From: Lytechinus pictus
Taxonomy: Eukaryota
Reading direction: 5' to 3'
NCBI RefSeq assembly: GCF_037042905.1
Contig: NC_087247.1
Span: 63,059,097-63,123,096 of the forward strand
Length of the DNA: 64,000 nt
Shown here: one piece after another, positions 3,090 to 46,396 of the stretch
Layout: the number at the start of each line of letters is the position of its first letter
Position numbering within the stretch: position 1 is the first letter of the stretch
Translations under genes and position numbers: made by a program
The notes under the pieces: generated by a model
The model's database searches: none
What the model saw: the letters and a program-made list of their open reading frames with translations, nothing else
What the model was told of the DNA's origin: nothing

Positions 3090-3880
3090 AACAAGTGGAA
3101 TGCCTCTGGCCGTCTCACCTGCATCACGCGATTCAATATAGCAGCAGTGCTGATTTTGAAAACTACTATAACTCGCACAAGATGTTCAGTGATACTTGGT
3201 TACTCGTATTTCCACGTTTTATGAACTAGACCAATACACTTATAGAGATATGATGGCAATTCAACAAATACCCCCAACGTGGCCAAAGTTCTTTGACCTT
3301 ACATGACCTTTGACCTTGATCATGTGACCTGAAACTCGCACAGGATGTTCAGTGATACTTGATTACTCTTATGTCCAAGTTTTATGAACTAGACCAACAC
3401 ACTTTCAAATTTATGGCTGTAATTCAACAAATACCCCAATTTGGCCAAAGTTCATTGACCCTAAATGACCTTTGACCTTGATCATGTGACCTGAAACTTG
3501 CACAGGATGTTCAGTAATACTTGATTACTATTATGTCCAAGTTTCATGAATCAGATCCATAAACTTTCAAAGTTATGATGACATTTCAAAAACTTAACTT
3601 TAGGTTAAGATTTTGATGTTGATTCCCCCAACATGGTCTAAGTTCATTGACCCTAAATGACCTTTGACCTTGGTCATGTGACATGAAACTCAGGCAGGAT
3701 GTTCAGTAATACTTGATTAACCTTATGGCCAAGTTTCATCAACTAGGTCCATATACTTTCTAAGTTATGCTGTCATTTCAAAAACTTAACCTCAGGTTAA
3801 GATTTGGTGTTGACGCCGCCGCCGCCGTCGGAAAAGCGGCGCCTATAGTCTCACTCTGCTATGCAGGTGAGACAAAAAAC
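3090..3880 (+). mobile_element. TIR-bounded element carrying internal ~180-bp tandem units, copy 1 (about 4 units)
   Basis: Left end AACAAGTGGAATGCCTCTGGCCGTCTCACCTGCAT, right end ATGCAGGTGAGACAAAAA. The 13-bp core GTCTCACCTGCAT / ATGCAGGTGAGAC is an inverted repeat. Interior units recur as ...gatgttcagtgatacttgattac...ccataaactttcaaagttatgatgg...tgacctttgaccttggtcatgtgacctgaaactc. Confidence 0.7.
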
Positions 3881-4267
3881 TATCCCTTGTAAAAAATAAT
3901 GGTACGATGGGCCTTCAAAATAATTTGTACCTCACCTTTACTAATGGCTTGTGTGCTCATGTTTTATTAACGCTAATGTTAGATTGAGACAGTGAGAACA
4001 AAAACGCGAATAATTCAATATCGTCTATTACCGATCATTTGGGGGGGGGGGTATAATTTACAGCATTGGAATGATTTGAAATTAGTACAAAATACATAAA
4101 GGTATATTAATGAAAAAAGGCAATAGAAAAACGTTTATAATGATTCTAAAATTGGTGCAGAAAAAACCTTGACATAAACGTCTTAATTCTACAACAAAAA
4201 GAGCGAGGAGATACCCTGAGTAAAGTCCCGTTATAATTATTTCCAACAGAGGTTAGATTAGGGGAGA

Positions 4268-7056: not shown

Positions 7057-8392
7057 AACAAGTGGAACGCCTCTGGCAGTCTCGCCTGCATTACGCAATC
7101 TAATATAGCAGCAGTGCTAAATTTGAAAACTACTATAAAATAATCATTCACAAAAACATCATTCATATAATGACATAATACCACGTTCATTGACCATAAA
7201 TGACATTTGAACGGAGACTTAAGACTGTCAACTACACCCATGTCCACATTTCATTCACTCTATCCATAAACTTTCAAAGTCATGATGGCACTTCAACAAT
7301 TACCCCAACATGGCCTAAGTTTATTGACCTTAACTGACCTTTGACTTGGTTTTGTGACCTGAAACTCACAGGGGATGTTCAGTGATGCTTGATTACTCTT
7401 ATATCCCAAGTTTTATGAACTAGATCCATAAACTTTCACAGTTAGGATGGTAATTCAACAAATACCCCCAACACGGCCAAAGTTCAATGACCTTTGACCA
7501 TGGTCATGTGACCTGAAACTCGTACAGGATGTTCAGTGATACTTGATTACTCTTTTGTCCAAGTTTTATGAACTAGATCCATAAACTTTCAGAGCTAGGA
7601 TGGTAATTTAACATATACCCCCAACACGGCCAAAGTTCATTGACCTTAAATGACCATTGACCATGGTCATGTGACCTGAAACTCGCACAGGATATTCAGT
7701 GGTACTTGATTAACCTAATGTCTAAGATTCATGAACTAAATCCATAAATTTTCAAAGTTATGATGGTAATTCAACAAATACCCCCAACTTGGCCAAAGTT
7801 CATTGACCCTAAATGACCTTTGACCTTGGTCATGTGACCTGAAAATCAGGCAGGATGTTCACTAATACTTTATTAACCTTATGTCCAAGTTTCATGGACT
7901 AGATCCATAAATTTTCAAAGTTATGATAGTAATTCAACAAATACCCCCAACTTGACCAAAGTTCATTGACCCTAAATGACCTTTGACCTTGGTCACGTGA
8001 CCTGAAACTCGAGCAGGATGTTCACTAATACTTGATTAACCTTATGCCCAAGTTTCATGAACTAGGTCCATATACTTTCTAAGTTATGATGTCATTTCTA
8101 AAACTTAACCTTCGGTTAAGATTTTGAAAATAATTTTCCCAACATGGTCTAAGTTCATTGACCCTAAATGACCTTTGACCTTGGTCATGTGACCTGAAAT
8201 TCAGGCAGGATGTTCAGTAATACTTGATTAACCTTATGTCCAAGTTTCATGAACTAGGTCCATATACTTTCTAAGTTATGATGTCATTTAAAAAACTTAA
8301 CCTTAGGTTAAGATTTGATGTTGACGCCGCCGCCGCCGCCGTCGGAAAAGCGGCGCCTATAGTCTCGCTCTGCTATGCAGGCGGGGCAAAAA
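7057..8392 (+). mobile_element. Same TIR/satellite element family, copy 2 (about 7 internal units; right TIR mutated to ATGCAGGCGGGGC)
   Basis: Shares terminal and internal sequence with copy 1. Inserted inside a polypurine repetitive tract; the flanks on both sides read ...agagaagatcgaaagggnacaagaacgnaaaacaa.... Confidence 0.7.
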
Positions 8393-8913
8393 TAGAAACG
8401 AAAAGGGGGAAAATGTTGAAAAATGTAAAGGGTGAACAAAGGGGAGAGAGAAGAAGGAAAGGAGGAGAAAATAATCGACATAGAAAAAAGAGAAGATCGA
8501 AAGGGAACAAGAACGGAAAACAAAAGAGGAATTAACGAATTAGAATTAAAGAAGTGAAAGGGGTTGAGGAAGAACAAGAGGGAGATTTAGAAAGAAGAGA
8601 CCGAATGGCCTGAATGAGAAGAGCAAATGAAAAGGGGGAGAGGGGAAGAAAGGAAGAAATAAAACACAAGAAAGACGAAAGAAGAACTGAAGGTAAGAGA
8701 ATAACAGAGAGGGAAAGAGAGAATAGATCTGGACAAAGTCGAAGGGGACAACATGACAATGACTTGTAGGTTAATGTTAATTTCAATAGGTGTATTTTAA
8801 ATGACTAATATTTTCAATCAATATCGTAAGACCCGTATACCATTATCAAAAAATAAAAAATGCAGGCCTACTGCATGGTCCTTTCAGGCCATATTTCATT
8901 GGTCAAAGTCAGG

Positions 8914-11500: not shown

Positions 11501-13049
11501 AATTCGATCAAGTCGAGCGTGCCAAGTATCAGAAAATTTCGAACTGACCGAAAAAAACACTCGCAGAAAACTCTTTTTTTATCACTTTCCCGTCATCAAA
11601 TTCACTCATTTTTTTCACAGAGTAATCATGAAACATGGAAGAATCAGAAAATGAAAAAAAAAAAAATCTTCAAAATTTCGAATTTTTTATTAGTTCGTCG
11701 AATTTCTAGGTATTTTGATTTGCGACTTCTCTCTCATTTCGGTATGGCCGATCACATATAATGTTCAAGAATCTACTTTTAAAAATATAGAGAAGCTGAA
11801 TTAAGATTGTGAATTGTATTAGCGCCACCAACGACCTTCCTTTTATTTCCGTGAAAGAGACATGCGAAGCAACTTTTCAGGCCGAGGTAAGCGATTTTGC
11901 TCTTTTTTATGTGGTTTTTATATAGAAAAATATTTGTAAAGTTGAAAGTAGAACGCTTTTCACCAGAAAAAGCCCTGGTGAGTAGCGGATTGAGTTTCGG
12001 CCAACATTATTTGCGTTATGAAACGATGTGAACCGACAACTCTAAAATCCATTGCGTAAAACTCTCACGCAATCTGCGTGAGTCTCACACAATTCATCCG
12101 ATTCTCACGCTCTCATGCTGATCATAGGAATTCTCACGCTGAACCCCGAAAATAGAGAAGAAAAAAGTTTATTAGCCTATATCGGATATTCAATAACATC
12201 ATAACCCGGCCAGGCAAAAGTTTCAAAGTTTTTAACCACACAAGCGCAAAGCTACACTATCAATGCAAATTGGTTTCGGTTTGCCGCGCAAAGACAAGAT
12301 ATTGAGTTGCTATTGGCTTACTGTATCCGGCGTGTGAGAGCTGGTGCATCAAAATTTTACTATGAAGCGGGGTTTTTGTGCGAGGCACAACGAGCGATCA
12401 AGTGTCACTGCAATGCCCTGCCAAAATTGTAAAAGCTCCCTACCGTGGAACGGAGGACACCCCCCTTCCACACAATCCCCCCCTCGGGCGCTCCGCGCCC
12501 TCGGTCACTTAGCTCCCTGACCCTCCCTCGCAATGTCTCACTCCAAACTCTTCTCAAAAGTTGGCAGCCCTGCGTTGCGTTGGTTGTGCGAGGTTAGTAT
12601 AGTATATTAGCTAGACCCACTCATGGGTTCAATGCATCTCGCGTGCGAAGGATTCATATGCACATGGTGCACGCGAATCTTTCACACCCTTTTTAATAAA
12701 ATAACTATGCCATTACAGATTACCTACAGTTTCTAATTGTGCTATGACACTTACCGAACCATATGGATCGTTTGTTGACTTCTCTTTGCTGTTTTTTAAA
12801 GAAAAAAAAAGCATTTTCTCGTGATCTTCACGTAGATGCCGCAGGATCATCGTGGATGTAAACTTTTGCCTAAAGAGGGCGCGCGATATTATTCACAAGA
12901 CGTTTGTTTACGGTTCTGTGTGTGTTCTGGAGCTTGTACTGCTAGCTGCATTTTAGACGCTCAGCATTATTTTCCTCTTTCTTTTTTTTTTTTTTTGGCT
13001 GTCAAGCGGTATACTCTATTATTGACGAGCTTTAAGACCTTTATCGCCC

Positions 13050-13400
13050 CCCCCCCTGACGAGCTTGAAGACCTTTTTTTTTTTTTTTTTTTTTTTTGCT
13101 TGTCAATTTATTTTCTGGTACGAAAACGTTTATTTTTGATTGAAGACCTTTTTTTTTTTGGTTTTTTGCTTGTCAATTTTTTTTTTCTGGTACGAAAATG
13201 TTTATTTTTGATTGAAGACCTTCTTTTTTTGTTTTTTTGCTTGTCAATTTTTTTTCTGGTACGAAAACGTTTATTTTTTATTGAAGACCTTTTTTTCTTG
13301 TTTTTTTGCTTGTCAATTTCTTTTCTGTTACGAAAACCTTTATTTTTGATTGAAGACCTTTTTTTTTTTTTTTTGCTTGTCAATTTTTTTGGCGGCCGAT
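13050..13400 (+). repeat. T-rich ~62-bp tandem repeat, about 5 units (...gcttgtcaattttttttctggtacgaaaacgtttatttttgattgaagaccttttttttt...), ending in the family terminus gCCCCCCCCCCtgtggaaaatcctaGGTACGCCACTGG at 13404-13437. Duplicate at 16180-16560; related copy at 19100-19515.
   Basis: Visible periodicity. Produces the F/L-rich + strand and K/R-rich - strand artefact ORFs 12836..13429, 13108..13383, 16166..16507 and 16290..16553. Confidence 0.8.
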
Positions 13401-14432
13401 TTTGCCCCCCCCCCTGTGGAAAATCCTAGGTACGCCACTGGTTTTATGCTTTAACAGAAAACATTTTGTTTTCATTGGAAAATCTCTTTAAGTTCAAGTG
13501 CACCCCAGAAAAAATGTTTGAATAAATAGAGAATTATGAAACAAGACTATCGCTGAAAACTTCATCAAAATCGGATGTAAAATAAGAAAGTTATGACATA
13601 TTAAAGTTTTGCTTATTTATCACAAAACAGTTACATGCACAATTCATTGATATCTAAATGAGAGAGTCAATAATGTCACTCACTATTTCACTTTTATTGT
13701 TCGAATTATACAATATTTCAATTCTCACGACTTTGACCAAATAGGACACTCTTTAAGTATATACATGAGATACAACCTGTTGATTTTTGGTACAATTTCC
13801 TTTTATGCGCCGACGACTTGAATCGAGAATGTTTGAGAGGAAAAATTCGCATTTCGATTGTTGTTTGCGTAATTTCCACCGCAGTATGAAGGATGACTAA
13901 GGACGGACCGAGCGAAGTAAACTGGTTGAGATTTGGAGGTAAGCGATAAAAACACTTTTATAAATAATTTAAAATTCCTTTTTAAAATGAACTTAAATCA
14001 TACGATCAAGATTAACAAAGTGGACAAATATTGAAAGGTTTGGCGCAGTTTAGTCCCTCACATTCGTGTGATGAATGAAAACGTCAAAATGCACTATGAA
14101 ATCACATGCGTTGTGCGAGGTTAGTATACTAACCTCGCATGTTGTGTGAGTGAGCTAGACCAAAAGCTTCAGTCTCTGTATTTTGGTTGTTCCGCTGAAC
14201 TGCATCGGCTCCACTCACCCATACATGGTGAATGGGGATGATAGTAAAATGTCAGAAATTGTTGAATAAATCCCCAGAAACGACGGTTATTCCTGTCTAA
14301 GACTAAGTATTACTATTTATTAGCATACGTACATACAAACCTCACAGTCACAAGTCACATTAACCCAGGGAGCTCCGGCCCGCGCAGCGGGCCGGAGCCC
14401 AGGAGCTTACCATGTATTTTACCATACTCACG

Positions 14433-14818
14433 GGACTAGGGTGATTTATGGTCTAAATATTTCTTTAAATGAATTGTGAAAACAGAAATTATGCACTTAC
14501 CACGATTATATGGATGAAGGTCTAACGAGTGGCAGTTTCCTGACATCTGGGCACAGACTGGAACCTCAAAAAACGAAAAGTTCTCTCCTTCTACCCCCGT
14601 CTCGATCGGCCATTTTTGTTATGAATTGTAACAAAATGGCCGATCGAGACTGGGGTAGAAGGAGAGAACTTGTCGTTTTTTTGAGGTTCCAGTTTGTGCC
14701 CAGATGTCAGGAAACTGCCACTCGTTAGACCTTCATCCATATAATCGTGGTAAGTGCATAATTTCTGTTTTCACAATTCATTTGGAGAAATATTTAGACC
14801 ATAAATCACCCTAGTCCC
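14433..14818. repeat. Near-perfect palindrome of ~386 bp (arms ~190 bp, centre ggccatttttgttatgaattgtaacaaaatggcc), flanked by two further short perfect palindromes (14373-14397 ctccggcccgcgcagcgggccggag; 14828-14862 ggacctcgacacgtcttaagacagtgtcgaggtcc)
   Basis: Arm sequences are reverse complements of each other (gggactagggtgatttatggtctaaatatttc...ctaacgagtggcagtttcctgacatctgggcacagactggaacctc...). Duplicate at about 17557-17942. Confidence 0.85.
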
Positions 14819-15305
14819 TTGCCCCGGGGACCTCGACACGTCTTAAGACAGTGTCGAGGTCCTGAATGCTACCATTCATTATCACCGGAGTACAAAACTT
14901 CGCGATGTTTGGCATTAGAAAACCGATGATCATAATGAATTAAAAATCTAATGAGTAATATCAATCTTACCTAAACAAACTGTTCCTAAATCAGCTTACC
15001 TTTGAAATAAGAATAATGAATATAATTCCATGAAATCCTTCAAAAGAGCATCAATTTTCGGACTTTTGTTCCAATCGCGAGATCGCCATGTTTGAAGAAC
15101 GTGAAAAAAAGTTTCTGCGCATGCGCATATGAATATTTATAAGTCTAAGATGACATCACTGTCTTTACAACACAGTTTAATGAATATGCATGTAAAGTCA
15201 AAACTTTCGGCAAGTCGCCTCGATTCAATTAAATCGTTATTTATACCATAGGCATATAATTAAATACCATATTTTCATTTTCATTTTATATATATATATA
15301 TATAT

Positions 15306-18300
15306 ATCGGATATTCAATAACATCATAACCCGGCCAGGCAAAAGTTTCAAAGTTTTTAACCACACAAGCGCAAAGCTACACTATCAATGCAAATTGGTT
15401 TCGGTTTGCCGCGCAAAGACAAGATATTGAGTTGCTATTGGCTTACTGTATCCGGCGTGTGAGAGCTGGTGCATCAAAATTTTACTATGAAGCGGGGTTT
15501 TTGTGCGAGGCACAACGAGCGATCAAGTGTCACTGCAATGCCCTGCCAAAATTGTAAAAGCTCCCTACCGTGGAACGGAGGACACCCCCCTTCCACACAA
15601 TCCCCCCCTCGGGCGCTCCGCGCCCTCGGTCACTTAGCTCCCTGACCCTCCCTCGCAATGTCTCACTCCAAACTCTTCTCAAAAGTTGGCAGCCCTGCGT
15701 TGCGTTGGTTGTGCGAGGTTAGTATAGTATATTAGCTAGACCCACTCATGGGTTCAATGCATCTCGCGTGCGAAGGATTCATATGCACATGGTGCACGCG
15801 AATCTTTCACACCCTTTTTAATAAAATAACTATGCCATTACAGATTACCTACAGTTTCTAATTGTGCTATGACACTTACCGAACCATATGGATCGTTTGT
15901 TGACTTCTCTTTGCTGTTTTTTAAAGAAAAAAAAAGCATTTTCTCGTGATCTTCACGTAGATGCCGCAGGATCATCGTGGATGTAAACTTTTGCCTAAAG
16001 AGGGCGCGCGATATTATTCACAAGACGTTTGTTTACGGTTCTGTGTGTGTTCTGGAGCTTGTACTGCTAGCTGCATTTTAGACGCTCAGCATTATTTTCC
16101 TCTTTCTTTTTTTTTTTTTTTGGCTGTCAAGCGGTATACTCTATTATTGACGAGCTTTAAGACCTTTATCGCCCCCCCCCCTGACGAGCTTGAAGACCTT
16201 TTTTTTTTTTTTTTTTTTTTTTGCTTGTCAATTTATTTTCTGGTACGAAAACGTTTATTTTTGATTGAAGACCTTTTTTTTTTGGTTTTTTGCTTGTCAA
16301 TTTTTTTTTTCTGGTACGAAAATGTTTATTTTTGATTGAAGACCTTCTTTTTTTGTTTTTTTGCTTGTCAATTTTTTTTCTGGTACGAAAACGTTTATTT
16401 TTTATTGAAGACCTTTTTTTCTTGTTTTTTTGCTTGTCAATTTCTTTTCTGTTACGAAAACCTTTATTTTTGATTGAAGACCTTTTTTTTTTTTTTTTGC
16501 TTGTCAATTTTTTTGGCGGCCGATTTTGCCCCCCCCCCTGTGGAAAATCCTAGGTACGCCACTGGTTTTATGCTTTAACAGAAAACATTTTGTTTTCATT
16601 GGAAAATCTCTTTAAGTTCAAGTGCACCCCAGAAAAAATGTTTGAATAAATAGAGAATTATGAAACAAGACTATCGCTGAAAACTTCATCAAAATCGGAT
16701 GTAAAATAAGAAAGTTATGACATATTAAAGTTTTGCTTATTTATCACAAAACAGTTACATGCACAATTCATTGATATCTAAATGAGAGAGTCAATAATGT
16801 CACTCACTATTTCACTTTTATTGTTCGAATTATACAATATTTCAATTCTCACGACTTTGACCAAATAGGACACTCTTTAAGTATATACATGAGATACAAC
16901 CTGTTGATTTTTGGTACAATTTCCTTTTATGCGCCGACGACTTGAATCGAGAATGTTTGAGAGGAAAAATTCGCATTTCGATTGTTGTTTGCGTAATTTC
17001 CACCGCAGTATGAAGGATGACTAAGGACGGACCGAGCGAAGTAAACTGGTTGAGATTTGGAGGTAAGCGATAAAAACACTTTTATAAATAATTTAAAATT
17101 CCTTTTTAAAATGAACTTAAATCATACGATCAAGATTAACAAAGTGGACAAATATTGAAAGGTTTGGCGCAGTTTAGTCCCTCACATTCGTGTGATGAAT
17201 GAAAACGTCAAAATGCACTATGAAATCACATGCGTTGTGCGAGGTTAGTATACTAACCTCGCATGTTGTGTGAGTGAGCTAGACCAAAAGCTTCAGTCTC
17301 TGTATTTTGGTTGTTCCGCTGAACTGCATCGGCTCCACTCACCCATACATGGTGAATGGGGATGATAGTAAAATGTCAGAAATTGTTGAATAAATCCCCA
17401 GAAACGACGGTTATTCCTGTCTAAGACTAAGTATTACTATTTATTAGCATACGTACATACAAACCTCACAGTCACAAGTCACATTAACCCAGGGAGCTCC
17501 GGCCCGCGCAGCGGGCCGGAGCCCAGGAGCTTACCATGTATTTTACCATACTCACGGGACTAGGGTGATTTATGGTCTAAATATTTCTTTAAATGAATTG
17601 TGAAAACAGAAATTATGCACTTACCACGATTATATGGATGAAGGTCTAACGAGTGGCAGTTTCCTGACATCTGGGCACAGACTGGAACCTCAAAAAACGA
17701 AAAGTTCTCTCCTTCTACCCCCGTCTCGATCGGCCATTTTTGTTATGAATTGTAACAAAATGGCCGATCGAGACTGGGGTAGAAGGAGAGAACTTGTCGT
17801 TTTTTTGAGGTTCCAGTTTGTGCCCAGATGTCAGGAAACTGCCACTCGTTAGACCTTCATCCATATAATCGTGGTAAGTGCATAATTTCTGTTTTCACAA
17901 TTCATTTGGAGAAATATTTAGACCATAAATCACCCTAGTCCCTTGCCCCGGGGACCTCGACACGTCTTAAGACAGTGTCGAGGTCCTGAATGCTACCATT
18001 CATTATCACCGGAGTACAAAACTTCGCGATGTTTGGCATTAGAAAACCGATGATCATAATGAATTAAAAATCTAATGAGTAATATCAATCTTACCTAAAC
18101 AAACTGTTCCTAAATCAGCTTACCTTTGAAATAAGAATAATGAATATAATTCCATGAAATCCTTCAAAAGAGCATCAATTTTCGGACTTTTGTTCCAATC
18201 GCGAGATCGCCATGTTTGAAGAACGTGAAAAAAAGTTTCTGCGCATGCGCATATGAATATTTATAAGTCTAAGATGACATCACTGTCTTTACAACACAGT

Positions 18301-18412
18301 TTAATGAATATGCATGTAAAGTCAAAACTTTCGGCAAGTCGCCTCGATTCAATTAAATCGTTATTTATACCATAGGCATATAATTAAATACCATATTTTC
18401 ATTTTCATTTTA
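15306..18412 (+). repeat. 3.1-kb tandem duplication, copy 2; junction with copy 1 is a (TA)10-11 microsatellite at 15287-15307
   Basis: Same as above. Copy 1 ends ...ttcattttcatttta then (ta)n then atcggatattcaataac, which begins copy 2. Confidence 0.9.
17557..17942. repeat. Second copy of the ~386-bp palindrome (within duplication copy 2)
   Basis: Identical to 14433-14818. Confidence 0.85.
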
Positions 18413-24594: not shown

Positions 24595-27500
24595 TGGCGT
24601 CGATCCGGCAGGTCATTAATATTCATGAGCTTAGAGATCTTGTTCGACCGATGACGTTGCTCATTAATATTAATATTACGGTAACACATCGCGGGTGCGC
24701 CTCACCACTTACAACTTAACCCTATCAAGTGCAGTTATACTGGCGTAAATCCAGCAAAATCCGGCAGTTTTTATGGAAATAACCAAAATAATGACAATGA
24801 ACCCAAATCAAAGTGTTGGTTTGTCCAACTTGATGGAAAAGACAGCATGGAGCTAGTAAAGCAGAAACCATTCATGGAAAAAGATTCACAACTTGTATTT
24901 TCAATTCCCCATTCATATCAATGTGCATAAAACTGGCGTCGATTCAGCATCTTTGGCGCAAACCCGGCAGTTTTTATGGAATTAACCAAAATAATGACGA
25001 TGAACCCAAATCAAAGTGTTGGTTTGTCCAACTTAATGGAAAAGACAGCATGGCGCTAGTAAAGCAGAAATCATTTATTGAAAAAGATTCACAACTTGTA
25101 TTTTCAATTCCCCATTCATATCAATGTGCATAAAACTGGCGTCGATTCAGCATCTTGGGCGCAAATCCGACAGTTTTTATGGAATTAACCAAAATAATGA
25201 CAATGAACCCAAATCAAAGTGTTGGTTTATCCAACTTGATGGAAAAGACAGCATGGAGCTAGTAAAGCAGAAATCATTTATGGAAAAAGATTCACAACTT
25301 GTATTTTCAATTCCCCATTCATAACAATGTGCATAAAACTGGCGTCGATTCAGCATCTAATTTGGCGCTAATCCGCCGGGCAGTTTTTATGGAATTAACA
25401 AAAATAATGACGATGAACCCAAATCAAAGTGTTGGTTTGTTCAACTTAATGGAAAAGACAGCATGGCGCTAGTAAAGCAGAAATCATTTATGGAAAAAGA
25501 TTCACAACTTGTATTTTCAATTCCCCATTCATATCAATGTGCATAAAACTGGCGTCGATTCAGCATCTTTGGCGCAAACCCGGCAGTTTTTATGGAATTA
25601 ACCAAAATAATGACAATGAACCCAAATCAAAGTGTTGGTTTGTCCAACTTGACAGCATGGAGCTAGTAAAGCAGAAATCATTTATGGAAAAAGATTCACA
25701 ACTTGTATTTTCAATTCCCCCATCATCATCATGTCAATGTCCATAAAACTGGCGTCGATTCAGCATCTTTGGCGCTATTCCGGCAGTTTTTATGGAATTA
25801 ACCAAAATAATGACAATGAACCCAAATCAAAGTGTTGGTTTATCCAACTTGATGGAAAAGACAGCATGGAGCTAGTAAAGCAGAAATCATTTATGGAAAA
25901 AGATTCACAACTTGTATTTTCAATTCCCCATTCATATCAATGTGCATAAAAACTGGCGTCGATTTAACATCTTTGGCGCTAATCCGGCAGTTTTTATGGA
26001 ATTAACCAAAATAATGACAAGGAACCCAAATCAAAGTGTTGGTTTGTCCAACTTGACAGCATGGAGCTAGTAAAGCAGAAATCATTCATGGAAAAAGATT
26101 CACAACTTGTATTTTCAATTCCCCATTCATATCAATGTGCATAAAACTGGCGTCGATTCAGCATCTTGGGCGCAAATCCGGCAGTTTTTATGGAATTAAC
26201 CAAAATAATGACGATGAACCCAAATCAAAGTGTTGGTTTGTCCAACTTAATGGAAAAGACAGCATGGAGCTAGTAAAGCAGAAATCATTTATGGAAAAAG
26301 ATTCACAACTTGTATTTTCAATTCCCCATTCATATCAATGTGCATAAAACTGGCGTCGATTCAGCATCTTGGGCGCAAATCCGGCAGTTTTTATGGAATT
26401 AACCAAAATAATGACAATGAACCCAAATCAAAGTGTTGGTTTATCCAACTTGATTGAAAAGACAGCATGGAGCTAGTAAAGCAGAAATCATTTATGGAAA
26501 AAGATTCACAACTTGTATTTTCAATTCCCCCATCATCATCATGTCAATGTCCATAAAACTGGCGTCGATTCAGCATCTTTGGCGCTAATCCGGCAGTTTT
26601 TATGGAATTAACCAAAATAATGACGATGAACCCAAATCAAAGTGTTGGTTTGTCCAACTTAATGGAAAAGACAGCATGGCGCTAGTAAAGCAGAAATCAT
26701 TTATTGAAAAAGATTCACAACTTGTATTTTCAATTCCCCATTCATATCAATGTGCATAAAACTGGCGTCGATTCAGCATCTTGGGCGCAAATCCGACAGT
26801 TTTTATGGAATTAACCAAAATAATGACAATGAACCCAAATCAAAGTGTTGGTTTATCCAACTTGATGGAAAAGACAGCATGGAGCTAGTAAAGCAGAAAT
26901 CATTTATGGAAAAAGATTCACAACTTGTATTTTCAATTCCCCATTCATAACAATGTGCATAAAACTGGCGTCGATTCAGCATCTAATTTGGCGCTAATCC
27001 GCCGGGCAGTTTTTATGGAATTAACCAAAATAATGACGATGAACCCAAATCAAAGTGTTGGTTTGTCCAACTTAATGGAAAAGACAGCATGGCGCTAGTA
27101 AAGCAGAAATCATTTATGGAAAAAGATTCACAACTTGTATTTTCAATTCCCCCATTCATATCAATGTGCATAAAACTGGCGTCGATTCAGCATCTAGGGC
27201 GCAAATCCGGCAGTTTTTATGGAATTGACCAAAATAATGAAAATGAACCCAAATCAAAGTGTTGGTTTATCCAACTTGATGGAAAAGACAGCATGGAGCT
27301 AGTAAAGCAGAAATCATTTATGGAAAAAGATTCACAACTTGTATTTTCAATTCCCCATTCATATCAATGTGCATAAAACTGGCGTCGATTCAGCATCTTT
27401 GGCGCAAACCCGGCAGTTTTTATGGAATTAACCAAAATAATGACAATGAACCCAAATCAAAGTGTTGGTTTATCCAACTTGACAGCATGGAGCTAGTAAA

Positions 27501-29130
27501 GCAGAAATCATTTATGGAAAAAGATTGACAACTTGTATTTTCAATTCCCCCATTATCATCATGTCAATGTCCATAAAACTGGCGTCGATTCAGCATCTTT
27601 GGCGCTAATCCGGCAGTTTTTATGGAATTAACCAAAATAATGACGATGAACCCAAATCAAAGTGTTGGTTTGTCCAACTTAATGGAAAAGACAGCATGGC
27701 GCTAGTAAAGCAGAAACCATTCATGGAAAAAGATTCACAACTTGTATTTTTAATTCCCCCATCATCATGATCATGTCAATGTGCATAAAACTGGCGTCGA
27801 TTCAGCATCTTTGGCGCTAATCCGGCAGTTTTTATGGAATTAACCAAAATAATGACGATGAACCCAAATCAAAGTGTTGGTTTGTCCAACTTAATGGAAA
27901 AGACAGCATGGCGCTAGTAAAGCAGAAATCATTTATTGAAAAAGATTCACAACTTGTATTTTCAATTCCCCATTCATATCAATGTGCATAAAACTGGCGT
28001 CGATTCAGCATCTTGGGCGCAAATCCGACAGTTTTTATGGAATTAACCAAAATAATGACAATGAACCCAAATCAAAGTGTTGGTTTGTCCAACTTGACAG
28101 CATGGAGCTAGTAAAGCAGAAATCATTTATGGAAAAAGATTGACAACTTGTATTTTCAATTCCCCCACTATCATCATGTCAATGTCCATAAAACTGGCGT
28201 CGATTCAGCATCTTTGGCGCTAACCCGGCAGTTTTTATGGAATTAACCAAAATAATGACGATGAACCCAAATCAAAGTGTTGGTTTGTCCAACTTAATGG
28301 AAAAGACAGCATGGCGCTAGTAAAGCAGAAACCATTTATGGAAAAAGATTCACAACTTGTATTTTCAATTCCCCCATCATCATGATCATGTCAATGTGCA
28401 TAAAACTGGCGTCGATTCAGCATCTAATTTGGCGCAAATCCGGCAGTTTTTATGGAATTAACCAAAATAATGACAATGAACCCAAATCAAAGTGTTGGTT
28501 TATCCAACTTGATGGAAAAGACAGCATGGAGCTAGTAAAGCAGAAATCATTTATGGAAAAAGATTCACAACTTGTATTTTCAATTCCCCATTCATATCAA
28601 TGTGCATAAAAACTGGCGTCAATTTAACATCTTTGGCGCTAATCCGGCAGTTTTTATGGAATTAACCAAAATAATGACAAGGAACCCAAATCAAAGTGTT
28701 GGTTTGTCCAACTTGACAGCATGGAGCTAGTAAAGCAGAAATCATTCATGGAAAAAGATTCACAACTTGTATTTTCAATTCCCCATTCATATCAATGTGC
28801 ATAAAACTGGCGTCGATTCAGCATCTTGGGCGCAAATCCGGCAGTTTTTATGGAATTAACCAAAATAATGACAATGAACCCAAATCAAAGTGTTGGTTTA
28901 TCCAACTTGATTGAAAAGACAGCATGGAGCTAGTAAAGCAGAAATCATTTATGGAAAAAGATTCACAACTTGTATTTTCAATTCCCCCATCATCATGATC
29001 ATGTCAATGTGCATAAAATTGGCATCGATTCAGCATCTTTGGCGCTAATCCGGCAGTTTTTATGGAATTAACCAAAATAATGACAATGAACCCAAATCAA
29101 AGAGTTGGTTTGTCCAACCTGATTGCAAAT
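24595..29130 (+). repeat. Satellite array A: 176-bp unique flank (24595-24770) then about 22 tandem units of ~203-206 bp (consensus ...cataaaactggcgtcgattcagcatctttggcgcaaatccggcagtttttatggaattaaccaaaataatgacaatgaacccaaatcaaagtgttggtttgtccaacttgatggaaaagacagcatggagctagtaaagcagaaatcatttatggaaaaagattcacaacttgtattttcaattccccattcatatcaatgtg)
   Basis: Visible periodicity. Unit variants recur in a higher-order pattern. The 66-95 aa ORFs listed at 24921-28609 are reiterations of the same unit. Confidence 0.9.
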
Positions 29131-29749
29131 TAACAAGGTTAACATTTTTCTTAAAATATCACAACCCATACAAGAAAAAAATAAAATCTAACATTTTCCC
29201 GCAAAATAACAATGAACGTCATTCCAACTTTAAGACGAAGGGGGCATGAAAGCCATGCAGGAGTTGAGGACAGCGAAGAAGTAGAAGAGTGCACTTGCAC
29301 GTCTTACGACAATAGATATTAATTATTTTGGCTATTTTCCAGGGCTGTTACGTACGTTTTCAACACTAGCGTACCTAAGGGGTGAAGGGGGCAGACTGCC
29401 CCCCCTGACGAGTCACAAACAAAAAAAAGGAAGCGAAAAGGTGGAAAGAAAAAAGAAAAGAGGAAAAAGGAAAGAGAGAAAAAAGGGGGAAGGGAAAAAG
29501 AAGAAAGAGTTTAAGAAAAAGGGAAAAACAAAAATTGGACTGCAGACTGTCGGGAAAAATGATAAACTGTCGGGCACTCGAGGCTGTTCCAACTGATTTG
29601 GTTTTTTAGTTCCACCATCTTTGTCGGTAAATGTAAATTAAACTGTACACTTTTATCGGTAAATTGTGATTTTTACGCAATGAGACTTTTATAGCTCTCT
29701 GTACCCATAGAGAGAGGATGGACTGGGCTGACCAGGGACAGGAAAAGAG

Positions 29750-34444: not shown

Positions 34445-35241
34445 ACAAGTGATAGCACCTCTGGCAGTCTCACCTACATTACACAATTCAATATAGTACC
34501 AGTGCTGACTTTGAAAACTATGAAATAATTATTTACAAAAAACACCATTCATATAATGATATAATACTATGCTCATTGACCCTAAATGACATTTGACCTT
34601 AATCATGTAACCTAAAACTTGTCAGTGATACTAGATTACCCCTATGTCTACAATTCATAAACTATATCCATAAACTTTGAAAGTTGTGACAGCAATTTAA
34701 TAATTACCACCAACTTTGACATTGGTCATGTGACCTTAAACTCGCACGGGATGTTCAGTGATACTTGATTATTTACTCATATATCCAAGTTTTATGAACA
34801 AGACCAATAAACTTTCAAAGTTATGATGGTAATTCAACATATACCCCCAACTTTGCCAAAGTTCATTGACCTTAAATGACCTTGATCATGTGACCTTAAA
34901 CTCGCACGGGATGTTCAGTGATACTTTACTCATATATCTAAGTTTCATGAATCAGATCCATAAACTTTCAAAGTTATGATGGTAATTCAACAGATACCCC
35001 CAACTTGGCCAAAGTTAATTGACCCTAAATGACCTTTGACCTTGGTCATGTGACTTGAAACTCAGGCAGGATGTTCAGTAATACTTGATAAACCTTATGT
35101 CCAAGTGTCATGAACTAGGTCCACATACATTCTAAGTAATGATGTCATTGTAAAAACTTAACCTTTGGTTAAGATTTGGTGTTGACGCCGTCGGAAAAGC
35201 GGCGCCCATAGTCTCACTCTGCTATGCAGGTGAGACAAAAA
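34445..35241 (+). mobile_element. Same TIR/satellite element family, copy 3 (diverged, about 4 units)
   Basis: Left AACAAGTGATAGCACCTCTGGCAGTCTCACCTACAT, right ATGCAGGTGAGACAAAAAC. Confidence 0.7.
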
Positions 35242-35369
35242 CAATTTAGAACTCAATGATACTGATGAAACTATTACATTATCTAATTTTTGTTTATGAA
35301 ATAACTGCTGTTTAGTAAAAATATTTTTTCAGAGATCCGATTTGAACCTTGTAATTTGATTTTTTTTCT

Positions 35370-36395
35370 TTATCCCAGTAGAAACTGGAATTACGCCAGT
35401 TTAATGCACATCGATAATGAAAGGGGAATTGAAAATAAGAGTTGTGAATCTTTTTCCATTAATGATTTCTGCTTTACTAGCTCCATGCTGTCTTTCAATC
35501 AAGTTGGACGAACCAACACTTTTATTTGGGTTCATTGTCATTATTTTGGTTAATTCCATAAAAACTGCCGGGTTTGCGCCCGAGATGCTGAATCGACGCC
35601 AGTTTTATGTACATCGATATGAATGGGGAATTGAAAATACAAGTTGTGACTCTTTTTCCATTACTGATTTCTGCTTTATTAGCTCCATGCTGTCTTTTCA
35701 ATCAAGTTGGACAAACCAACACTTTGATTTGGTTTATTGTCATTATTTTGGTTAATTCCATAAAAACTGCCGGATTAGCGCCAAAGATGCTGAATCGACG
35801 CCAGTTTTATGCACATTGACATGATCATGATGATGGCCGGGGGAATTGAAAATACAAGTTGTGAATCTTTTTCCATGAATGGTTTCTGCTTTACTAGTTC
35901 CATGCTGTCTTTTCCATCAAGTTGGACAAACCAACACTTTGATTTGGGTTCATTGTCATTATTTTGGTTAATTCTATAAAAACTGCCGGATTAGCGCCAA
36001 AGATGCTGAATCGACGCCAGTTTTATGCACATTGACATGATCATGATGATGGGGGAATTGAAAATACAAGTTGTGAATCTTTTTCCATGAATGGTTTCTG
36101 CTTTACTAGCTCCATGCTGTCTTTTCCATCAAGTTGGACAAACCAACACTTTAATTTGGGTTCATTGTCATTATTTTGGTTATTTCCATAAAAAACTGCC
36201 GGATTTTGCTGGATTTACGCCAGTATAACTGCACTTGATAGGTTGTAAGTGGTAAGTGGTAAGTGGTGAGGCGCACCCGCGATTCCCAATGTGTTACCGT
36301 AATATTAATATTAATGAGCAACGTCATCGGTTGAACGAGATCTCCAAGCTCATGAATATTAATGACCTGCCGGATCGACGCCAATATAGTCTCAA
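35370..36395 (-). repeat. Satellite array B: about 5 units of the same ~205-bp satellite in inverse orientation, plus the same flank inverted (36190-36395)
   Basis: 35540-35580 cattgtcattattttggttaattccataaaaactgccgg is the reverse complement of the array A unit. 36350-36395 gctcatgaatattaatgacctgccggatcgacgccaat is the reverse complement of 24595-24640. Confidence 0.9.
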
Positions 36396-36639: not shown

Positions 36640-36900
36640 TAATCCACTCACACTTATTGCGAGGTAACCCAGACTCGAGAGCTCCCGCCCGCGCAGCGGG
36701 CGGGAGCCCAGAAGCTTACTGTGTATTTGACCATATTCACCGGACTAGGGTGATTTATGGTCTAAATATTTCTCCAAATGAATTGTGAAAACAGAAAGTA
36801 TACCACGATTATATGGATGAAGGTCTAACGAGTGGTAGACAGGAATAACCGTCGTTTCTGGGGATTTATTCAACAATTTCTGACATTTTACTGTAATCCC
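36640..36900. repeat. Partial (single-arm) copy of the palindrome element
   Basis: gagagctcccgcccgcgcagcgggcgggagc...ccggactagggtgatttatggtctaaatatttctccaaatgaattgtgaaaacagaaagtataccacgattatatggatgaaggtctaacgagtgg, then the reverse complement of 14240-14300. Confidence 0.7.
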
Positions 36901-37305
36901 CATTAACCGACGGTAGGGTATACGTGTGGGCTCGCATGTTTTCTCATTCCCACCCTTTTGTCAATTCACAGTCCAAAGTTTGATGTAATTTTACACATCG
37001 AATTTACAATCTAAGGATGTATAGCCATCAAACTTTTAAACCATGATATTTAGTGAAGACAATATTTTAAACGATATAGATTAAAAGGCATGAAAAATTA
37101 TACTTTACCGATGTTTAATTGGGTTGAACACGATCAAAATAGTCAATATGGCAGCCAAACTGTGAAATATTTACAAACGAACGGAGAGGGCGTCAACAAT
37201 CACGAATGTGATATCGATATTGCTTTCGATATTATACGATCTGCTCCTTATGCGAGCGAAACCGCTACGATCACAAGTAGCAGACGACAATCAAACGATC
37301 ACTTT

Positions 37306-37501
37306 AGTTCAAGCAGCATAAACGAAAGGCCTGCATGATGGATGCTGTAGCCAAGGGGATATTCGGGGAACACTTCACTCTCAAGCCTGACCAGCGGGAA
37401 GCGCTACAGTGTTTGGAGGACGGGAGAGACCTGTGGGTCCAGCTCCCCACTGGACATGGAAAGTCGGCGATTTTCACCGTCTTTCCGATATGGAAATCAA
37501 A
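37306..37501 (+). CDS. Isolated exon-like fragment encoding RecQ-family helicase motif 0/I: ...GIFGEHFTLKPDQREALQCLEDGRDLWVQLPTGHGKSAIF...
   Basis: Bounded by acceptor-like tttag| and donor-like AAAG|GTTATT. Peptide resembles the RecQ N-terminal helicase signature F..FRPGQ.EAI...L.GRD..V.MPTGGGKSLCYQ. No further helicase exons were recognised nearby. It may be a pseudogene or TE-carried fragment. Confidence 0.4.
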
Positions 37502-39066
37502 GGTTATTAATTTTTTAATAGGCCTACTTTATTATAAAATATTGGGAAAATGATAACTACCGTAGTATTAACTTTGACATTCAAAATGCAGCTTTCATCG
37601 TTTAGACCCAGATCTAGGTTTGTGGATCACTTAAATTCAAGCAGTATAAACATATGGCCTATTTATACTACATAATCGTTTCAATTGAATATCAAATGGC
37701 ACTAAAACACTTATATGATGCTATATCTGCATACTAGTCTAACACTGAACATAAAATGAGTGAAAAAATGATTTTAACAGAAAATATTTTTATAGGTTAG
37801 AAGTTCCCATAGACCACTACTCCAACTGACCAGACATACAGTCCCAGTTAAATCAAATACACAATTTATTACGTTTATTTACACCTTATTCTTTCTATTC
37901 TTCTTTCATTTTACACTATTTATTTTGTGTTGGGCTATTCTGATGACTGGCCACATTGAATGCATTTGTTTATTTCAATGTTTTTAAATCTTTTCTATGT
38001 GAACACTGACTGAAATTAAGTATAACGTCGATTATTGCAATCCACACAGTCAAGTCCTGGATCTTCTCGTATAGGCCTATACGTTCAAATCTCTGTACAG
38101 AGTTGCTATGATTGTCGTCTCAGGGGGATATGAGTCAATTTTGAAAAGACATTTCCAACATCTTTATACCTATCATATTTAGATGTCTGATTAAGAAACC
38201 TTCAAACACCCCCCCCCCCAAAAAAAAAAAGGGGGAACAAACTCTAAGAAATGATGTTAAAATTCTGCAATAGCTATCTATTCAAAGTGTTATTTGAGGG
38301 CTCCAATTATAGGCTTTATCATCGAACCATTCAAATTTGAAGGAAAGGGGAGTGTCTCCTTTGCGTCGCTATTATCACCACAATAGAGGCTATACTGCTT
38401 GTTTAAGACGACTCGTAATATTAGATCCATATTGACCTTTATACTCTCATGTAGGACCTTTAGGTCTAACTATTCTAAAAACGCAAAACTTTAAAGACAA
38501 TCAGACCAATTAATGCTACACAGAGTGAACGCCAATTCAGATCCACCCAATCGGCTGGCAAGAAAAAAAAGGAGAGAAAGAGAAAGGAAGAAAGAAAGTG
38601 GGGTTAAAGAAGAATTATTGTCGACCTATGTTATAATGATAATAATAATGGATGTGTAATGCGCCAAATCCACTCGGCAGGGTGCCCGAGGCGCAGTGAA
38701 AGAAAGAAAAACACAGAGAGAAAAATACAAAGTATGTTATAATATATGAAATTATATTACGTGTATTTTTATTTCAGAACTATTTATGAAACATAATTTG
38801 CTTAAATGTTAGTCCTATACTGGTGCTTGCGTTGTCTGTTTGATGAGATAAATAATCCTGTTTAAGGAGATTAAATGGTTCTAAATCATCCCGTTTCCAA
38901 GTCCATAAATATACACCAAATATATTTCCTTGTATTCGGATTTTTCAAAATTATTGTATGTAGTGACATTGATTTTTTTTAATGACTACTACATTTGCCG
39001 CATTTAAGGTCTAAATATAAAACATTTCCAGTCCGTGCTTACGTTGACATTAGTGCATTGGCCATA

Positions 39067-39498
39067 CAGTGGCGTACCGTGTGTCACGGCATGGGGGGAC
39101 CAGCAAAAAAAAATGAGTATAATAATAGAGGCATTTTAAGGGCAGTGCCATTAAACGGATATGTATATTACTGATAAAAAATAATGCGAGCGCCAAGCGC
39201 GAGCTGAAAATCTTTGATATTCAGACCTAAAAAGGGACACAAGCATTTTTTTGTAATTATGATACGTGCCCGTCTCGCTAAACAATGCAAAACTGCTGAA
39301 ATGTTTGTATTTATTGACCCCAAACAGGGACATTTTAAGGACAATAGGCCTATTTTAGGAATCCATATCCATGTACATATCTCAAAAGCTACGTTTCTCT
39401 TCCCTTCTCCCTCTTTTTCTCCTTTTCCCGTTTTTTAAATATTTTTGCCAGCCGAGGGGGGGGGGGGTGCCCCCATGTCCCCCGTAGTCACTCCACTG
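39067..39498. mobile_element. Element of the same family: CAGTGGCGTACCgtgtgtcacggcatGGGGGG ... GGGGGGGGGGGGtGCCCCCatgtCCCCCgtagtcactCCACTG
   Basis: Same terminal motif class; degenerate right end. Confidence 0.35.
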
Positions 39499-39938
39499 AT
39501 TGGTGAGATATGTCTACTCTTCATGACACGAGCGTAAATCCAGAGGGGGGTGGGGGTATGCATCCCCTCCCCCCACACTTTTCAACACAGAAAAAAAATA
39601 TTCTTTAATTATCAAATGGTCAATAACTTTTAGTATGTGGATTTATCTTTAAATGCAGTCAAGGTGCTTAAATTGGCCAAGTTTTTCCATTTTAAAGATG
39701 AAAAATTTCTCACTCGGCCGCTCTGCCCCGCGCTTAATCTAATTTGGCCTTGACAATCACTACGTTTAGCTTATTGCAGAGGTTAATTTATATCCACTGC
39801 GTAATGGGAATATGTTTATAATAATTCAATTTTTTAATATAAGATTCCAATGACTTTTAAATATGATGATAACTATGGACCTTAAACGAATCAAACATCC
39901 TTTAAATATACACTTTCGTGAATATGGGGGAGGGGCTG

Positions 39939-40325
39939 TCATAACTTGGAATCTCTGTGGAAGCGCAGGAATTTTTCACCAAAATATAGGCTCAGTCTTC
40001 TTCGTTTCTTCCGAAGAAATGGCGAAGCATAGCTGGTCACTTTCACTTTCCTCCCCAGGTTAACATTGATTCTACTAATTTTCTTTAATTTGGATTTATT
40101 TTCAATTACATTTGAATTGCTTTCAGATAATTTTGAAATTATTCTGCAACATCTGTCGCAAATGAATTTTTTTGATTTTTGATCTGGTGTCACTTTAATT
40201 CCCAATGATTCGACAGCGTCAGCAGTGGTGTAATCACGGTGATCCAATTTTGCATTCAAAGATCTTCTTTTATTAGGATGATTATTCAAATTACGGTCAC
40301 AATTACAACACCAGTAGTCAGCCAT
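39939..40325 (-). CDS. Hypothetical 128-aa ORF with CxC...(about 45 aa)...ICDRCC spacing reminiscent of a C4 zinc-binding (ZAD-like) module
   Basis: MADYWCCNCDRNL...KKFICDRCCRIISKLSE; followed by a K/R-rich basic stretch. No splice or homology support beyond the cysteine spacing. Confidence 0.2.
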   Translation of the reverse strand: MADYWCCNCDRNLNNHPNKRRSLNAKLDHRDYTTADAVESLGIKVTPDQKSKKFICDRCCRIISKLSESNSNVIENKSKLKKISRINVNLGRKVKVTSYASPFLRKKRRRLSLYFGEKFLRFHRDSKL

Positions 40326-40744
40326 AATTACTAAAATGAATTAATGAATCAAATAAAATTACCACCAGCAATCAGCACACCTAACGTTATACATGGCAAT
40401 ATACGAATAAAATAATACGATACGATACACTACACGAAGATAAACGATACTAGTTATAATCGCGATAAATCGAGACATGAAAAAGTTAATAACGATAATG
40501 ACGTCATTCAAGATGGCAACTTGCAAGAAAAACCGTCAGGTCAGGTGAAAATGTCTTAGATGACAGATTTCTCAATCATCCAGAGGATTTTTTTCAATAA
40601 CTCCGGCCCAAGGTATGCAATTAGCTTAAGTTATCTATATTACACTGATAATGGAAACCATGAAAATGTCAATTTTGCCTAAAAAAAGTTTTAAATCGCG
40701 ATCTATAAAACGCTAGTTCACTATACGTTGGCTGTAGGTAGGGG

Positions 40745-41195
40745 CCCCCTCCGCTTCAGTCTATGTATGGTGAGTGAGCCAACGCAGTTCAGCGGAACAA
40801 CCAAAATACAGAGACTGAAGCTTTTGGTCTAAACGAGTGGCAGTTTCCTGACATCTGGGCACAGACTGGAACCTCAAAAAAACGAAAAGTTCTCTCCTTC
40901 TACCCCCGTTTCGATCGGCCATTTTTGTTAAAAATCGTAACAAAATGGCCGATTGAGACTGGGGTAGAGGAGAGAACTTTTCTATTTTTTGAGGTTCCAG
41001 TCTGTGCCCAGATGTCAGGAAACTGCCACTCGTTAGACCTTCATCCATATAATCGTGGTAATTGTATACTTTCTGTTTTCACAATTCATTTGGAGAAATA
41101 TTTAGACCATAAATCACCCTAGTCCGGTGAATATGGTCAAATACACGGTAAGCTTCTGGGCTCCCGCCCGCTGCACGGGCGGGAGCTCTCTGGGT
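40745..41195. repeat. Third copy of the palindrome element, inverted relative to the 14.4-kb copy; left arm truncated, right outer palindrome gggctcccgcccgctgcacgggcgggagctc at 41159-41189
   Basis: 40826-41040 matches the ctaacgagtggcagtttcctgacatctgggcacagactggaacctc...ccatttttgtt...aacaaaatggcc... core. 40745-40830 is the reverse complement of 14150-14230. Confidence 0.75.
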
Positions 41196-41439
41196 TAATT
41201 GCGAGGTTGTATGCCATACTCACCCAAGCCAAGGGTTCATTACATGCCGCCGCGCACAGAAAAATCAAGCCATAGAAGTTGTGTGTTGTGGACACCAGGG
41301 GCCTGTTGCATGAAAGGGTCTTTCGTAGAACCATTCTACGTAAGAACGAGATATCGCTCAACTGTTTCACAAAGCCGATTTGGGCGATACGAAGAACGGC
41401 CAACGGTCCTCTTGGAAAGACACCTCCAGACCACTCACA

Positions 41440-42200
41440 CGTATTGCGAGGTTAGTATTAGTATATTAACCTCGCACCACGAACCGCGTTTGGCAGTGGA
41501 TTTCTAACTAGTGGGTCGCGCATGCTGGGATCTCACTTCTTGGGTCCACAACACACAACTTCTATTGCTTGAATTTTCTGTGCGCGGCGGCATGTAATGA
41601 ACCCTTGGGTGCCTCCAGACCACCCATGGGTTCATATCGTCTCGCGTGCGAAGGAATATCAGTCATATGCACGCGACACACACAACACATCCAAAATATA
41701 CTGGGCTTTTGCCCACATAAAATATCACGCATAATCTGGTATTTCACATTCTGCTATGACACTTACCGAATCATTTAGATCCTTCCGTGACTTCTCCTTG
41801 AAGTTTCTTTTTAAAAATATGTATATTTTCTTGATCTTTAGTGAAGATTTCACGGAGATAATAATTGGTCAGCGTGGATATCACTTTTCGCCTGAAGAGG
41901 GCGCGCGATTTATATTCATATCAAAGACACGACAAGGGAACGACTAGGCACCTACACTATTTTACACGCAAATCGACGCAAGGCATTACGCGAAGTCCGT
42001 GAAGTGTCCAATCTTTTCATTGTATAGACTTTGGTATAGTGCCGTATTATTGACGTTCGTTAAAGCTTGTACTGCTGGTTTTGTTCCAGGCATGTGTACT
42101 TTTTAAATTTTTTTTTATTAGTCATCGTTCTAAATTAATTGCAAAAAAGTGTTATCGTCGCCAATAGTAATCTTGAATTATGTTTTTGAAGGTATTTTAT
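41440..42200 (+). repeat. Mosaic interspersed repeat module copy; related copies at 12540-12960 (and its duplicate 15665-16085) and 2090-2400
   Basis: Shared blocks: gcgaggttagta...tactaacctcgc palindrome; gacccactcatgggttcaatgcatctcgcgtgcgaagga; gctatgacacttaccgaa; aagagggcgcgcgat; cgtaaatcga(t/c)gcaa(a/g)gc(g/a)ttacgcgaagtc...gtgtccaatctttt. Confidence 0.7.
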
Positions 42201-45089: not shown

Positions 45090-45870
45090 CTAAAATTCCC
45101 TTTTCTTTTCACTTTTCCCTCCCTCCCTCCCTCCCTCCCTGAAATGATCTGAAATATCAGAAATAAGTATTCCTGAACGTATAGAGCAAGTGTCGTTAGT
45201 TATAATGTTGTCTATTACAGAAACAGAATGCGGAGTGACACGAGTTGGATATTTTATAAGAGGAATCATAGAGTGAGGCATGAGTAAATCAACAAAATCA
45301 GTTACACTCTGTACTTAACCAACATTCAGTAAATTAATGTTAAAGTCACCAATTATATATAAAACATTTTTTCCTCTATTTACAATTCAAACAAATTTAT
45401 GAGAAATGAAAAAAAATGATCTGTTTGGTAACCGGGAGGCCTATAAATAACACCAAGCAATACAGAATATTTATGATTACAAATTTCAATAAAAATACTT
45501 TCGGTGAAATCATTATTTACATCAAGATCACATCGACGTTTAAAACTAATGTCGGATCGAATAAAAATACCAACACCTCCACCACGTCTAGTCTTCCTGC
45601 TATTATTAATGAATTCATAATTATCAAGATTATACATAGGTAGAGTTGACTGATCATTAATCCATGTTTCTGATATACCAATTACAGACGGTTGGATTGA
45701 AAGAGAACTAATAAATAAAGACAAATTATCAAAGTTACGACATAAGCTTCTACAGTTGACATGAATGCAAGATAACTTGCTAGCAACTGTTTCAGAAAAG
45801 TAAGTATTTGACAAAAAATTATTGAATTCAGAAGGAGTGTAATAAGCTTCTGCATGTAGAGGACCGTGGT
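45090..45870 (-). pseudogene. Truncated, frameshifted non-LTR retrotransposon (LINE, CR1/L2/jockey-like) ORF2 apurinic-endonuclease domain
   Basis: Minus-strand ORF 45380..46063 contains LSCIHVNCRSL...IGISETW...RKTRRGGGVGIFIRSD...LLGVIYRPP. The second frame 45090..45281 continues with IDNIITNDT...SGILISDISDHF. These are the hallmark EN motifs (GGGVAIY, RPP, SDH). The frameshift and lack of a downstream RT indicate a dead copy. Confidence 0.7.
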
Positions 45871-46396
45871 CACTTACAAAATCAGCTGGAGTTACATATT
45901 CTTGCAGATTATCTACATCAATTTCATTTAGATAATTCAAAACACGATTTTGGCGAGCCATTTCATGAAAAACAAACAAATACAAAAAAGAAGCTGGAAA
46001 ATATAAACAACAATCACCAAGGAGCAAAATGTTAAAAAAAAAAAAAATTACAGGAGTAATCAAAACTTAAATACAACATTTACATGTATTTACAATAAAA
46101 AGAATATATGCAGGGTATATGTGGTTATCCAATATACAAAGGGTTTGGCAACAGACAATAAGATGCAACAATCGGAACACTAGGAGAAGATTGTTCAATA
46201 CGATATACATTAAGCTGAATTGGTGTAATTGGTGTAATGACATACTTATTCACAGTAATGAAACAGTGAGAAATAAAATGAAAGGAGGAAAGCCAAAGCA
46301 GCAAGAAAGAAGGAGGAGAAAAATAACATTTCCATTCAATAAAATACATTTTTCCCTACAGGCATTTCACAGTATACTGGCTGGTATACATAAACA

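Follow-up and report, generated by a model that had tools for sequence, protein, structure and literature searches.

Is a long palindrome with GC-rich mini-palindromes at its outer ends, recurring within one region, the precursor of a hairpin RNA or a foldback transposon? A sequence-only reading had put forward both candidates for the palindrome at 14.4 kb in a 64,000-nucleotide stretch of Lytechinus pictus DNA (the window, meaning the whole stretch analysed).

The window is eukaryotic and rich in repeats, with a GC content of ~36% and several satellite arrays, whose periods are 203, 163, 139 and ~100 bp. The 203-bp satellite occupies 24710-29139 with ~21 units and a higher-order alternation of ~403-413 bp, and a short inverted block of it lies at 35422-36194. 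A ~163-bp (or 192-bp) repeat forms four short dispersed arrays (3139-3925, 7187-8436, 34573-35297 and 49748-50245), the last of them inverted and 91% complementary to 3340-3783; their appearance suggests that a mobile element carries such tandem repeats as its core. A 227-aa ORF on the minus strand (45380-46063) matches the Pfam domain Exo_endo_phos just below threshold (E 1.3e-4, 22.3 bits versus a cut-off of 24.5). It has clear homologues, the closest being 62% identical and from a marine metagenome scaffold and the others 35-46% identical, and since these carry Exo_endo_phos/RVT domains, the ORF is a fragment of a LINE-type retrotransposon. Scanning the window revealed no tRNA gene and 0 Rfam matches at gathering score, and a known Rfam RNA family was rejected as an identity for the palindrome.

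The palindrome at 14.4 kb and its tandem duplicate

The long palindrome at 14432-14818 is real. Folded as plus-strand RNA it reaches -407 kcal/mol, versus -137 +/- 6 kcal/mol for shuffled sequences (z = -45). Its arms had been described as essentially 100% complementary around a 6-nt centre; compared base by base, they prove to be ~96% complementary, with five mismatches (three of them G:T) and three single-base indels, and the loop between them is 7 nt long. We refer to this copy as A, to its left terminal region as L, and to the mini-palindrome beyond its right arm as R (Table 1).

Mini-palindromes had been reported at both outer ends of copy A. Both exist and both are perfect: the left one, within L, has a DNA folding energy of -19.4 kcal/mol (z = -5.3), and the right one, at 14828-14862, has a perfect 12-bp stem. 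The left one is part of the element, as the split copy described below makes clear. R has no counterpart in that copy or elsewhere in the window, and its membership in the family is doubtful, because it is confined to A and its duplicate while the split copy carries L at the corresponding end. We therefore treat R as flanking or replacement sequence rather than as a demonstrated family member. A search of the window revealed no right-hand L near copy A, which looks like a truncated element that has lost its right terminus. Copy A is without a target duplication, a result that fits truncation and proves nothing.

The related sequence at 17.6 kb, which we call copy B, is present as claimed, and it belongs to a 3,111-bp unit found twice in tandem (12178-15288 and 15303-18412), the two units being joined by (TA)7 at 15289-15302 and differing only in the length of one T-run (11 versus 10, at 13159/16284). 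Since the identity of B with A stems from this duplication, B adds no independent evidence. If it is not an artefact of assembly, the duplication is very recent. Each unit also contains 4.5 units of a 69-bp T-rich tandem repeat (13080-13390 and 16205-16514), which creates spurious ORFs of 197 and 124 aa.

ORFs within the palindromes had been dismissed as artefacts, and we agree: they are mirror images, with the same peptide (MDEGLTSGSFLTSGH...) on the plus and minus strands, and a protein search with the 72-aa ORF at 14510-14728, the sole palindrome ORF queried, found no homologue. The palindromic element is thus shown to be without coding capacity.

Table 1. Features of the palindromic copies, of the sequences nested in them and of the surrounding repeats, in window coordinates
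Feature	Position	Strand	Remarks
Further T sequences	12583-12601, 14113-14140, 42558-42588, 44436-44450
U, intact 144-bp copy (TAGAC...GTCTA)	14156-14299	+	61 bp upstream of copy A; reference for joining the split pieces
Copy A, left terminal region L	14361-14431		terminus TAACCCAG and mini-hairpin; common to both ends of CD
Copy A, GC-rich mini-hairpin	14372-14398		perfect 12-bp stem, GCTCCGGCCCGC gca GCGGGCCGGAGC
Copy A, left arm	14432-14621		190 nt
Copy A, central loop TGAATTG	14622-14628		7 nt
Copy A, right arm	14629-14818		190 nt; truncated here, expected right-hand L missing
CCCCGGGG, then mini-palindrome R (GGACCTCGACAC...GTGTCGAGGTCC)	14819-14862		seen in A and its duplicate B only
Copy B	17485-17942		identical duplicate of A within the 3.1-kb tandem duplication; palindrome copy given as 17553-17945
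CD, left target-site duplication ATTGCGAGG	36656-36664	+	rebuilt empty site matches the T family
CD, left L and outer 94 nt of left arm	36665-36835		the 'half copy' of the sequence-only reading
Target duplication of U AACGAGTGG, first copy	36827-36835		last 9 nt of the left piece of CD
U, 3' half	36836-36908	-	matches 14227-14299 in reverse, 96%
Unrelated DNA splitting U	36909-40762		3,854 bp, exactly between U positions 14226 and 14227
U, 5' half	40763-40831	-	matches 14156-14226 in reverse, 94%
Target duplication of U AACGAGTGG, second copy	40832-40840	+
CD, rest of left arm, loop, whole right arm and right-hand L	40841-41197		ends CTGGGTTA
CD, loop AAAATCG	40931-40937		7 nt
CD, right mini-hairpin	41160-41186
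CD, right target-site duplication ATTGCGAGG	41198-41206	+

A second copy split by nested insertions

Related sequence is likewise present at 36.7 and 40.8 kb, where it had been counted as a half copy and a further, inverted copy with one arm truncated. Next to the break of each piece lies half of a 144-bp sequence, U, both halves being in the same inverted orientation relative to the intact U upstream of copy A. When 36836-36908 is joined to 40763-40831, the result is the reverse complement of U with an exact junction. Since the flanking halves of U rejoin without a base lost or gained, the two pieces are one element, which we call CD. The total of three full copies and one half copy thus reduces to two independent copies, A and CD, which lie 22 kb apart in the 64-kb window.

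We rebuilt CD by removing U, one copy of U's duplication and the 3,854-bp segment that splits U. The rejoined element (36665-36835 plus 40841-41197) is a 528-bp palindrome running from TAACCCAG to CTGGGTTA, with arms of ~260 nt, 248 paired positions, nine mismatches and four indel events. A GC-rich mini-hairpin lies near both of its ends, so the left mini-palindrome of copy A is the subterminal part of each arm. A search of the window for the terminus pattern TAACCCAGRGAGCTCCSGCCCG turned up the known copies only.

U itself had inserted in the left arm of CD with a perfect 9-bp duplication, AACGAGTGG, as long as the one made by the palindromic element, and the uninterrupted arms provide the empty site for this insertion. 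The 3,854-bp segment has neither a target duplication nor terminal inverted repeats or long terminal repeats; a palindrome, GGGGCCCC, lies ~15-22 nt from its right end, and searches with its 128-aa Cys-rich ORF (39939-40325, minus strand) yielded neither a Pfam match nor a homologue.

CD also preserves its own insertion site. Its exact termini are abutted by a perfect 9-bp direct repeat, ATTGCGAGG, and removing the element together with one copy of the repeat leaves ccactcacacTtattgcgaggtt, 23 of whose 24 bases agree with two other sequences in the window. These are the outer ends of inverted repeats of ~110 bp (41432-41540 and 44322-44431) that bound a ~3-kb unit, and they belong to a hairpin-forming repeat family (CACTCACACGTATTGCGAGGTTAGTA...TACTAACCTCGCAATACGTGTGAGTG), called T here. 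This paralogous empty site fixes both the termini of CD and the 9-bp duplication; it shows that the element inserted by way of a staggered cut, with 9 bp of target duplicated. The evidence for the target duplication comes from this single insertion, CD being the only copy with both ends. The exact termini, the perfect duplication and the paralogous empty site bear out the suggestion that the sequence is mobile or copied and support its candidacy as a foldback transposon. The order of nesting is then the palindromic element in T, U in the palindromic element, and the 3.85-kb segment in U. A second foldback, directly to the right of CD, has 70-nt arms (41229-41298 and 41539-41608) that are 94% complementary and 240 nt apart; a T hairpin occupies its centre.

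Past ~20 nt, A and CD have unrelated flanks; what the flanks have in common is a T-like motif of ~15 nt, displaced by 12 nt in A. The elements, compared arm to arm, are 93.5-97.8% identical. Unrelated flanks around near-identical elements favour separate insertions over one duplicated segment. Dispersal may in part have been passive, inside another repeat, since T-like sequence surrounds or adjoins both copies.

Divergence of the arms and rival explanations

Are the arms kept complementary, or are they drifting apart? We aligned four arms, both arms of A and both of CD, and found 167 columns to be invariant. Arm identity within a copy (96.3% in A, 96.1% in CD) is not above that between copies, and most variable columns differ in a single arm in a way that breaks pairing: there are roughly a dozen such singleton events versus one to three paired changes in the arm. 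Two differences between left and right arms, one C/A substitution and one T-run indel near the centre, are common to both copies, which implies that the progenitor palindrome was already imperfect. Other differences are copy-specific and agree on both arms; the arm proper has one to three such sites and L has ~8, and the mini-hairpin shows a flip from G:C to C:G between copies with pairing kept perfect. These sites hint, in a small sample, that the ends may have undergone concerted change or may be under structural constraint. Later damage is evident in both copies: A is truncated and has been duplicated in tandem with 3.1 kb of DNA, and CD is split by ~4 kb of nested insertions. The sequence-only reading had held that imperfect arms in other copies would imply decay rather than maintenance. 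Both independent copies have imperfect arms and, because most differences lie in a single arm and break pairing, A and CD are overall decaying relics, not maintained structures.

This pattern bears on the possibility that the locus is a hairpin-RNA gene, endo-siRNA or miRNA-like, whose transcript is diced along the ~190-bp stem and whose pairing is under selection. The plus strand does fold into an almost unbroken stem, and the three G:T mismatches among the five of copy A would pair as G:U on that strand; at two sites, arm column 59 and the flipped base pair of the mini-hairpin, both partners have changed. Palindromic MITEs, moreover, are known sources of miRNAs and siRNAs (PMC1784062, PMC3086885), and the element resembles animal hpRNA endo-siRNA loci in that its long inverted repeat encloses a short loop and could form double-stranded RNA. 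It differs from those loci in that it is dispersed in the window, has a target duplication and has decaying arms, one copy being broken by insertions. Against selection on pairing stand the predominance of single-arm differences that break it, the lack of strand bias among the mismatches of CD, and the ~4 kb of insertions that split that copy. A strand bias of G:U wobbles was tried as a sign of RNA-level selection and rejected, the counts (3 versus 0 in A, 3 versus 2 in CD) being few and inconsistent. As for resemblance to known RNAs, the Rfam matches all fall far below threshold, involve single-sequence miRNA models and are found on both strands; they reflect the generic hairpin only. We regard a hairpin-RNA gene as decidedly improbable.

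The other explanations do away with mobility or with the palindrome itself. The element might be a one-off local inverted duplication, later spread by segmental duplication or as a passenger in a T-bounded repeat; tandem segmental duplication is demonstrably how copy B came about, and A and CD both lie in or beside T-like sequence. Such a history sits poorly with the exact palindromic termini of CD and the perfect 9-bp duplication at a site whose paralogues have no interruption, or with flanks that are alike only in the displaced ~15-nt motif around elements 94-98% identical, and we consider it very improbable. That the palindrome is an artefact of sequencing or assembly, for instance of a chimeric foldback read, is scarcely credible: the 3.1-kb duplication, with its single T-run length difference and its (TA)7 joint, could be an assembly error, but the arms carry mismatches and indels, two of them common to independent copies, and artefactual foldbacks would be perfect and unique.

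Classification and target sites

The palindromic element is most probably a non-autonomous, MITE-like DNA transposon of the foldback or long-inverted-repeat kind, ~0.53 kb long. It consists of two inverted arms of ~260 nt and a 7-nt loop, and nothing else. Each arm is made up of the terminus TAACCCAG, a 27-nt GC-rich mini-hairpin that begins 3 nt further in (positions 12-38), and 190 nt of AT-richer sequence. We infer that a transposase encoded elsewhere mobilises the element by cut-and-paste, its probable recognition site being the termini or the subterminal GC hairpin. If read-through transcripts gave rise to hairpin or small RNA, that RNA would be a by-product. Hairpin or small-RNA output is possible, at best in that role, and would be superfluous for explaining the sequence.

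We found no transposase gene or autonomous partner of the element in the window. Exact-pattern scans gave 0 matches among metagenome contigs, using motifs conserved in all arms, and 0 among viral contigs, using the mini-hairpin; sequence strings from the element and the neighbouring satellites had no match in full-text literature.

Elements of the foldback and palindromic MITE-like kind are well known. Drosophila FB elements have a 9-bp target duplication and arms made of tandem subrepeats, and Galileo, of the P superfamily, has duplications of 7-8 bp. Like these two, the palindromic element is nearly all long inverted arms, is non-coding as their short copies are, and has a short target duplication. 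Unlike those of FB, its arms are unique sequence: Tandem Repeats Finder detected no tandem repeats in 14361-14862, and the FB family proper was rejected for lack of tandem subrepeats in the arms. From Galileo it differs in duplicating 9 bp, the likeness being one of architecture that implies no sequence relationship. Palindromic MITEs offer a further parallel. Human Made1, the source of mir-548, is 80 bp long and has TA duplications of the Tc1/mariner type. The present element shares with Made1 and with miRNA/siRNA loci derived from plant MITEs that it is small, non-coding, a near-complete palindrome and a hairpin RNA if transcribed; it differs from Made1 in its 528-bp length, its 9-bp duplication and its subterminal GC hairpins.

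Other classes fitted less well. The piggyBac elements have TTAA target duplications and CCC...GGG termini. TTAA|CCC does occur where A begins on its left and where CD ends on its right, but GTAA stands at the left-hand end of CD and the empty site shows 9 bp duplicated, and this class was rejected. Helitron/HUH elements, which leave no target duplication and have asymmetric ends (5' TC, 3' hairpin and CTRR), were rejected despite the subterminal hairpins, given the 9-bp duplication and the symmetric, palindromic ends. A SINE was rejected too, there being no tRNA-like part, no poly-A tail and a palindromic body.

At the level of superfamily, the 9-bp duplication fits two assignments equally, Mutator-like elements or some P-superfamily elements. 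Mutator-like elements have 8-10-bp target duplications and long inverted repeats (PMC5225508), and P-superfamily MITEs such as BuT5 have target duplications of 8-9 bp (PMC3698922). With MULEs, the palindromic element shares long terminal inverted repeats, and its 9 bp lies within their 8-10-bp range, which is not MULE-specific; unlike theirs, its transposase was not found in the window.

The position of CD raises a further point. CD sits exactly 21 nt inside a hairpin-forming T end, at the 9-mer ATTGCGAGG, and two cases in a T-rich region suggest the hypothesis that the element may have a target preference. A palindromic target motif is preferred by Galileo (PMC4168063). The element might even target hairpins, through structure-dependent recognition or hairpin-templated correction during transposition, as the position of CD in the T end, that of A beside a T-like motif, and the apparent concerted change of arms and mini-hairpin would suggest; we think this rather unlikely.

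The gain is chiefly one for annotation: spurious ORFs drop out and the number of copies is put right. The nested insertions also serve as a worked case of how paralogous empty sites can fix exact termini and a 9-bp target duplication. If it is true that the element inserts at one set point within the hairpin ends of a second repeat, and that its arms change in concert, the family would be useful for the study of structure-directed targeting and of how palindromes are maintained; on present evidence it is an ordinary family of relic transposons.
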